From positions 12,276,001 to 12,340,000 of the forward strand of contig OX597818.1 of NCBI GenBank assembly GCA_951406725.2: DNA of 64,000 nucleotides, in the 5' to 3' direction. The position numbers were made by a program, and so were the translations under genes. Under the pieces are notes generated by a model. The model was not told the origin of the DNA, did no database searches, and saw only the letters and a list, made by a program, of their open reading frames with translations. Of this stretch, positions 60,788 to 61,747 are shown one piece after another. Source of the stretch: Octopus vulgaris (lineage: Eukaryota). Each line of letters begins with the position of its first letter. The stretch's first letter is position 1.

Positions 60788-60835
<48 letters not shown>

Positions 60836-60836
<1 letters not shown>

Positions 60837-60992
60837 TTTATTTAAAGCAGCAGAAAATTCAACAAAACCTGTTACTCTGAATTTCCCGTTGCCGTTCATC
60901 GGACAGTTTTTCTAGCAAAAACTGTCCGATGAACGGCAACGGGAAACTCAGAGTAACAGGTTTTGTTGAATTTTCTTCTGCTTTAAATAAAG
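60836..60992. repeat. Near-perfect 76-bp inverted repeat (74/76, 5-nt loop), each arm with an HHR-like motif
   Basis: 60836-60911 / 60917-60992; the element continues to ~61063 and is flanked by (TA)n on both sides. Confidence 0.92.
60922..60959 (+). ncRNA. Small type I hammerhead-like motif (U4C, weak helix II); mirror copy on minus at ~60869-60906
   Basis: CTGT-CCGATGA-aCG-gcaa-CGg-GAA-ACT-cag-AGT-A-ACAG; GUA triplet. Confidence 0.55.
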
Positions 60993-61061
60993 CATATTAC
61001 TCTACCACTGGTATTTGAGTACTCTTTCTTCCACCTTGTTTCACATTTATGTGTTTACTCC

Positions 61062-61094
<33 letters not shown>

Positions 61095-61187
61095 AAAATA
61101 AAATACAAAATGGGACAAGAACGAAAAACAGGACAACAAAACATCCAGATAGACGATACAATAAAAAAACACGGACGGGTCATTCGA

Positions 61188-61254
61188 AGCCTTTTATCTT
61201 CAGTTAAGGACCGGATCATCCTAGCAATTTTGGCTGATTAATCTTGAGATTGCT
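61188..61254 (-). ncRNA. Permuted hammerhead-like motif, copy 1 (G12A, helix I mismatches)
   Basis: Minus strand AGCAAT-C-TCAAGA-ttaatc-AGCC-AAA-ATTGCT-aggatgatccggt-CCTTAA-CTGAAGA-taaaa-GGCT; helix III is a perfect 6 bp. Confidence 0.55.
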
Positions 61255-61556
61255 CCAATCTGGCCAGCCCCAAGGGAAAACTAAGCTAAGAGCACTATAT
61301 TCCTTGGAAAAAAGCAACGAATGTATACGAAACAAGGACAGAAAAACAGACGATGTTACACGATTATAAATACAAAATACAATAAAAAACAATAATAATA
61401 ATAATAATAACAGTACATAACAACAAGCGTCTTTCGACTAATAACGAATTGAATTCAGCTGGCGTGTATGGAAATTAAGCCTTACGACAGAGGAAGAATA
61501 TCGACGTGGCAGTGACCACAGTCAAGCGCGAAAGAGCTAGCAGTCGGGTCATTCGA

Positions 61557-61623
61557 AGCCTTTTATCTTCAGTCAAGAACCGGATCATCCTGGTAATTTC
61601 GGCTGATTAATCTTGAGATTGCT
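61557..61623 (-). ncRNA. Permuted hammerhead-like motif, copy 2
   Basis: Minus strand AGCAAT-C-TCAAGA-ttaatc-AGCC-GAA-ATTACC-aggatgatccggt-TCTTGA-CTGAAGA-taaaa-GGCT; helices I and II are perfect. Confidence 0.65.
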
Positions 61624-61676
61624 CCAATCTGGCCAGCCCCATGGAAAATCTAAGCTAAGGGCATTAGATTCCTTGG

Positions 61677-61747
<71 letters not shown>

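Follow-up and report, generated by a model that had tools for sequence, protein, structure and literature searches.

Type-SGC hammerhead ribozymes (HRIMA-1 and variants) carry their blocks in S-G-C order, have a linker of about 3 nt between helices I and II, and possess an extra helix that joins the far sides of these two helices (Eckert et al. 2023, PMC10085705). The RNAs described in the available part of that paper come from metatranscriptomes, none from the genome of a known organism, and a split of block C was assumed not to occur. Metazoan non-LTR retrozymes are non-coding head-to-tail units with one type I hammerhead each, give RNAs of 170-400 nt, and have been proposed to depend on Penelope elements and to move as circular RNA (PMC7229834; bioRxiv 10.64898/2026.07.22.740005). 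Naiads are tandem-forming elements with (TA)n targets, 5' truncation and partial tandems; they were reported to possess no canonical hammerhead, and unexplained half cores were flagged in them (Craig et al. 2021, PMC8557442). In the pseudoknot (PK) hammerhead, a helix II strand is supplied via a pseudoknot and the added helix is named IV (Zhan et al. 2024, PMC11300833).

We analyzed a 64,000-nt stretch of Octopus vulgaris DNA (contig OX597818.1, positions 12,276,001 to 12,340,000; the window), near the end of which two permuted hammerhead motifs stand in direct repeats. The locus is best read (probability about 0.68) as a rearranged, decayed insertion of a ~740-bp non-coding (TA)n repeat with one predicted hammerhead per unit, the likely mobile form being a circular RNA of unit length from which a Naiad-type Penelope-like reverse transcriptase (RT) copies. 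The octopus motifs share with type SGC the block order, the core bases, the short linker (4 nt) and the extra helix. They differ in their predicted fold, which breaks block C in two: the strand for helix II comes from the 5' side of the cut, and A9 is separated from G10.1 by one or two helices. Furthermore, they are genomic and present in thousands of copies. Compared with metazoan retrozymes, the octopus unit is longer (640-860 nt), and its hammerhead is non-circularly permuted and core-opened. Helix IV of the PK hammerhead is the stem of a pseudoknot loop with pistol-like connectivity, unlike the octopus helix between A9 and G10.1. By analogy, the octopus element would work like a retrozyme or Penelope pLTR hammerhead and be wired like type SGC, failing one defining feature of each.

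The window locus and the family A repeat

Two 135-bp direct repeats, 124/135 identical and spaced by 369 nt, lie at 61176-61310 (copy 1) and 61545-61679 (copy 2), flanked by two (TA)n runs. On the minus strand, each presents the cleavage block, then the GAAA block, then the CUGAAGA block. The original prediction had described this arrangement as two permuted hammerheads in direct repeats with complementary defects, and re-analysis bears this out, down to the predicted cuts at 61617/61616 and 61248/61247. In kind, it is a non-circularly permuted hammerhead in a Penelope-like repeat that probably moves through an RNA running from cut to cut. Copy 1 retains an intact helix III but carries A in place of G12 and mismatches at two helix I pairs; in copy 2, GAAA and a helix I of 6 bp are preserved and the 15.4 pair of helix III is broken. 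The features of the locus are as follows.

61064..61092, no strand: target microsatellite, (TA)n, abutting the 3' end of the element; a TA run stands at the tail of 32/36 other loci
61093..61547, minus: 3' 455 bp of a family A repeat, non-coding and 5'-truncated; matches to 29 other loci begin at query position 133-189 and run to the tail
61181..61323, minus: copy 1, with every part of the core-opened hammerhead fold present but predicted to be inactive (A for G12 at 61231; two mismatches in helix I)
61192..61203, minus: CUGAAGA core of copy 1 (61203-61197), then TAAAA (61196-61192), read as the start of helix IV
61247..61248, minus: predicted cleavage site of copy 1 (AUC, cut after 61248), by structural analogy
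Within 61257..61269, minus: upstream helix II strand of copy 1 (61269-61264; partner 61237-61232), pair probability 0.96
Within 61257..61269, minus: linking-helix strand of copy 1 (61263-61257; partner 61217-61211), 4/7 pairs changing on both sides
61270..61307, minus: hairpin V of copy 1, between helix IV and G10.1, from the fold and pair counts
61309..61323, minus: helix IV 5' strand of copy 1 (partner 61181-61195, the bases after A9), from the minimum-energy fold and pair counts
61545..61547, minus: CCG, a 3-nt microhomology joining fragment to body; private junction, found in 0/36 other loci
61545..61679, minus: 135-bp piece from a second unit, on the upstream side (copy 2); the element tail and most of the helix IV 5' strand are absent
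61550..61676, minus: copy 2, the same fold lacking helix IV and with a weakened helix III; GAAA (61600-61597), helix I and CUGAAGA (61572-61566) are preserved
61616..61617, minus: predicted cleavage site of copy 2, by structural analogy
61680..61745, no strand: (TA)n microsatellite on the 5' side of the insertion

A motif scan scored copy 2 at 14, and 100 shuffled windows gave two hits, none at 14 or above; the motif is more than chance. An Rfam scan of the window showed no hammerhead family among the best 150 of 167 rows. A separate 229-bp repeat lies next to the element at 60836-61064, between TA runs, with an 81-bp near-perfect foldback (arms 60831-60911 and 60917-60997); 40/40 scored candidates match it from end to end at 95-100%.

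A DNA search of the 2.8-Gb genome retrieved family A copies that match the query only from position 133 onward. These copies continue upstream into common sequence, which makes family A a non-coding repeat whose units measure 703-789 bp (about 740 bp) and each hold a single hammerhead motif near the tail. A family A 22-mer has 310 exact matches in the genome, and the full 5' end is present in 11/36 other loci. Copies 1 and 2 differ from the family majority at 7/135 and 5/135 places, respectively. An intact ancestor need not be reconstructed from them, as had been suggested, because 19/39 scored family A copies are intact (the 39 include the window's two copies and three loci fetched twice); about half are broken. 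Six family A loci hold two same-strand motifs, spaced by 722-833 nt. The 369-nt repeat and hammerhead spacing, originally taken as a family feature, was sought in 36 other loci and its junction found in none; no 369-nt monomer family is present among these loci. The spacing is a private, one-off accident of the window locus, and a family A monomer would be about 740 nt. The upstream piece extends 72 nt beyond its predicted cut and is fused there, at CCG, to the middle of the unit that follows. With this mid-unit join and no junction shared among the 36 loci, the window locus is read as a partial tandem with a deletion or template jump. It is a broken, decayed copy and a poor test substrate; because copy 1 lacks G12, by analogy neither double cleavage nor monomer release would be expected here.

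Sister families, young arrays and a probable Naiad link

Three sister families were retrieved with up to one mismatch: B (2551 genome matches), C (504) and D (797). Unit lengths are 807 nt in family B (one pair), 637-652 nt in family C (two pairs) and 843-860 nt in family D. Family B has no GGC after the core. Family C has the same fold without hairpin V (L183-L202, L220, L221), as determined on a real copy because the majority string is spoiled by truncated copies. Ends of truncated family C copies cluster 9-18 nt after the predicted cut, in TA-like bases, and truncation points in the families scored show no enrichment at the predicted cut. A metagenome scan found no relative.

Family D (L203-L240) consists of very young head-to-tail arrays with units up to 99.9% identical and a ribozyme motif intact in each unit. 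We fetched 23 arrays, all picked for being arrays; 22 open with a 5'-truncated unit cut at scattered points, and whole units end at one common 3' end. One of them, L240, has lost its unit junction, similar to the window locus. The longest, L218 (G000:C1:108237200-108243600), holds six ribozymes. A set of 8 A-to-G changes recurs in all six of its units (in one unit, 7 of the 8 were scored); the changes lie 2-54 nt after the predicted cut and destroy GAAA. None of them occurs in 5 comparison units, and the chance probability of so tight a cluster among the 127 As of the unit is ~3e-8. The cluster looks like the product of ADAR editing. It fits one edited RNA template copied repeatedly, for example from a circular RNA, and DNA-level duplication after insertion could possibly have produced the same pattern.

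These arrays sustain the general idea of a circular or monomeric RNA intermediate in the original prediction, at unit length rather than 369 nt. It is also conceivable, but in our judgment unlikely, that an active ribozyme merely trims linear tandem transcripts and that arrays arise with no circle, via linear read-through RNA or DNA duplication. Partial tandems are general to Penelope-like elements (PMC8557442), and a shared A-to-G cluster was seen in just one array of 23 from a sample chosen as arrays, both of which suit such an origin. Against it, the truncated first units begin at scattered positions whereas the 3' ends do not vary, and identical edits extend across the truncated first unit and five whole units of L218, for which the simplest explanation is one template copied repeatedly. 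Contigs of seven sequencing runs (six guessed to be RNA) cover the window locus and a family D tandem, and contigs by nature cannot show ends or back-junctions.

Family A displays the traits of a non-autonomous Naiad: a (TA)n target, 5' truncation, tandems and inversions. Inverted 5' pieces of the same element adjoin family A copies in five loci (L004, L007, L008, L018 and L022), as is known of Penelope-like insertions, Naiads included (PMC8557442). Unlike Naiads, family A has no ORF; loci of families A and B contain no RT motif in six frames and no autonomous-Naiad ORF (N-terminal GIY-YIG plus RT). The octopus Naiad end given in the supplement of PMC8557442 has 301 exact 20-mer matches in the genome. 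A hammerhead motif lies 1.1-1.7 kb downstream on the same strand in 8/15 loci with a Naiad RT motif, where the RT gives RVT_1 matches below the curated cut-off. This Naiad-type family has different letters in all core helices (II GACACC/GGTGTC, I CTGCCC/GGGCAG, III ATGG/CCAT) in unchanged order, with a helix IV of about 3 bp, and it shares with family A both the ribozyme layout and a GCCRGATTG linker.

To map RT remnants, 15 unnamed proteins from a homologue search were used. The RT protein search gave 152 matches, of which the best 30, together with 40 chosen stretches, made up the 70 RT loci examined. None ended in a family A tail, so the dependence of family A on Naiad is inferred; a single one contained an A-like tail, which belongs to a family C copy lying upstream of the RT. 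A degenerate codon pattern for the RT had 0 hits in the genome and missed the known family as well. Beside one Naiad remnant lies a PIF1-like helicase fragment (L105:717-1262; Pfam PF05970, E 1.8e-23), probably a Helitron piece.

Beyond octopus, the layout with upstream helix II and helices IV/V was discerned by eye at the ends of at least 10 of the 54 published Naiad entries (PMC8557442), some flagged there as 'HHR_half_core'; the core-opened fold is not parsed in the available part of that paper. Besides two entries placed by file order that are probably Naiad_Plae and Naiad_EuTe, they come from cnidarians and cephalopods: three near-identical Acropora sequences, Naiad-2_Movir, two Octopus, Euprymna (one mismatch in helix II) and one unnamed entry from part 9. 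The reading covered core matches 21-50 of 62 for CTGATGA, 1-39 of 43 for CTGAAGA, 1-15 of 25 for CTGAGGA and 1-15 of 23 for CTGACGA. Among these matches, the layout was absent by eye from several other Naiad ends, and spider and ostracod contexts were left unparsed. By eye, nematode Naiad ends (supplement S5, parts 13-16) resemble type I hammerheads whose loop II is long, a form that the 7-17 nt spacer used in PMC8557442 would miss.

A probable hammerhead fold opened between A9 and G10.1

Modeling of the octopus motifs places the partner of helix II upstream of the cut site, where a GGCUG strand kept in all families pairs with the bases before GAAA. The strand right behind it pairs with the bases before the helix I 3' strand, corresponding to the linking helix of the SGC design. 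From 5' to 3', the order is helix IV, hairpin V, helix II strand, linking helix, 16.x UH / 1.x, 11.x GAAA 15.x, linking helix, 2.x CUGANGA, helix IV. By this order the chain would enter and leave between A9 and G10.1, and TAAAA would begin helix IV. TAAAA does follow CUGAAGA in both copies, as first noted, and more likely starts this extra helix than forms an insert before helix II. The accompanying remark that other families have a single A at this point did not hold up: the window contains no other such family, and four genome families have AAGAA, ATGAA, CTGAG or TGGA. Overall, the motif more likely keeps the SGC order and has its hammerhead core opened by one or two extra helices inserted between A9 and G10.1.

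When window copy 1 and the family A majority were folded without constraints, AAAAGGCUUCGAAUG paired with the 5' flank as helix IV, hairpin V fell between helix IV and G10.1, and the upstream helix II formed. In both sequences, C11.1 pairs upstream with a probability of 0.96-0.98 and downstream never above 0.02. Across 13 selected real copies of families A-D, 91.9% of cells pair under the six-helix model, compared with 30-50% in slid controls. Two-sided changes occur in 10/46 pairs of these copies (four in helix I, four in the linking helix, and one each in helices III and IV), a number reached by 19/500 shuffles; the proportions are 4/6 in helix I, 1/5 in helix III and 4/7 in the linking helix (with the upstream helix II strand). 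The upstream helix II has two-sided change in 0/6 pairs within families A-D. Its letters differ between these families and the Naiad-type family, and its covariation rests on the latter and on the by-eye reading of published ends. Median upstream helix II probability is low in old copies (0.09 in family B, 0.02 in the Naiad-type family), where nested folding favors the upstream helix weakly. Folding z-scores (-1.43, -0.01, -0.85) are not significant. The core elements CUGANGA, GAAA and UH are intact in family copies and window copy 2; G12 is missing from copy 1.

We consider it quite unlikely that the motif is a plain type-SGC hammerhead with a 5-nt bulge, its helix II formed by the downstream GGCU, or that it acts as a switch whose downstream strand takes the place of the upstream one in truncated or cleaved RNA. 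A GG(C/U)U does stand exactly 5 nt after A9 in families A, C and D, and one extra base after A9 is common in Penelope hammerheads (PMC4209133). By sequence, a 4-bp downstream helix II is possible in four of five families (25/29 copies of A, 9/10 of C, 6/6 of D and, with wobbles, 18/20 of the Naiad-type family), and GGCU would be free in window copy 2, as its helix IV partner is missing. However, the helix forms in 0/13 scored family B copies, its median pairing probability is 0.0 in all five families, and it is 80.8% paired with no two-sided change. By eye, eight of ten published Naiad ends lack the downstream partner, and the two octopus entries have a wobble-rich one. No helix II partner occurs within 2 nt of CUGANGA; the nearest is 4-5 nt downstream or missing, and no insert longer than 2 nt is known at this position in the available text of Eckert et al. 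(PMC10085705). Conservation of the downstream GGCU is explained by its pairing in helix IV, and the linking helix begins right after the upstream strand, as the SGC design requires.

Slightly less probable still is that the fold binds RT and is conserved without cleaving, or that it survives as a relic through descent. The many broken A copies and the many Naiad ends with no such fold would accord with this idea, but CUGANGA, GAAA and UH are kept across phyla though every helix changes letters.

Implications for Penelope-like transposition

The core-opened hammerhead is a real and conserved variant, apparently undescribed, and predicted from its sequence to cut. Among the main texts and passages searched, no account of this layout turned up, nor any tested precedent for a break at A9/G10.1; the main text of Forgia 2023 and a 2019 review contain no passage on an extra core helix. 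PMC13725137 cites Weinberg et al. 2015 (PMC4509812) in a list of works on hammerheads that have extra helices or are permuted in other ways.

We propose that a tandem transcript would be cut once per unit and that helices IV, II, III and the linking helix would hold the new ends together after the cut, which would favor their ligation into a circle. With a (TA)n nick as primer, RT would start at the element tail and run round the circle, leaving a 5'-truncated unit followed by whole units. The window locus would be such a partial tandem, its unit junction lost by deletion or template jump at CCG. A retrozyme-like 369-nt monomer freed by two ribozymes in terminal repeats, suggested by the two motifs in 135-bp direct repeats and by a size within the 170-400 nt range of animal retrozymes (PMC7229834), is a very improbable and largely refuted mobile form, given that its junction and spacing recur in 0/36 other loci, copy 1 lacks G12, copy 2 has no helix IV and a weak helix III, and the body starts mid-unit at a microhomology.

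Returning to the unit-length circle, we lean slightly toward the broader view that many Naiads and their non-coding passengers carry an active core-opened hammerhead, that clamped ends yield unit-length circles reverse-transcribed round into (TA)n, and that the putative ADAR edits of L218 record such a circle. If true, this would answer why Naiads seemed to be without the hammerhead of other Penelope-like elements. It would provide, as far as literature searches reach, the first non-circularly permuted hammerheads in animal genomes, and would overturn the assumption that the CUGANGA block and helix II cannot be separated. The core-opened layout is a new pattern for search descriptors, and family D arrays are the best substrate for bench tests. 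The circular-RNA route of Penelope-like transposition, long proposed, thereby becomes testable on young, near-identical copies.
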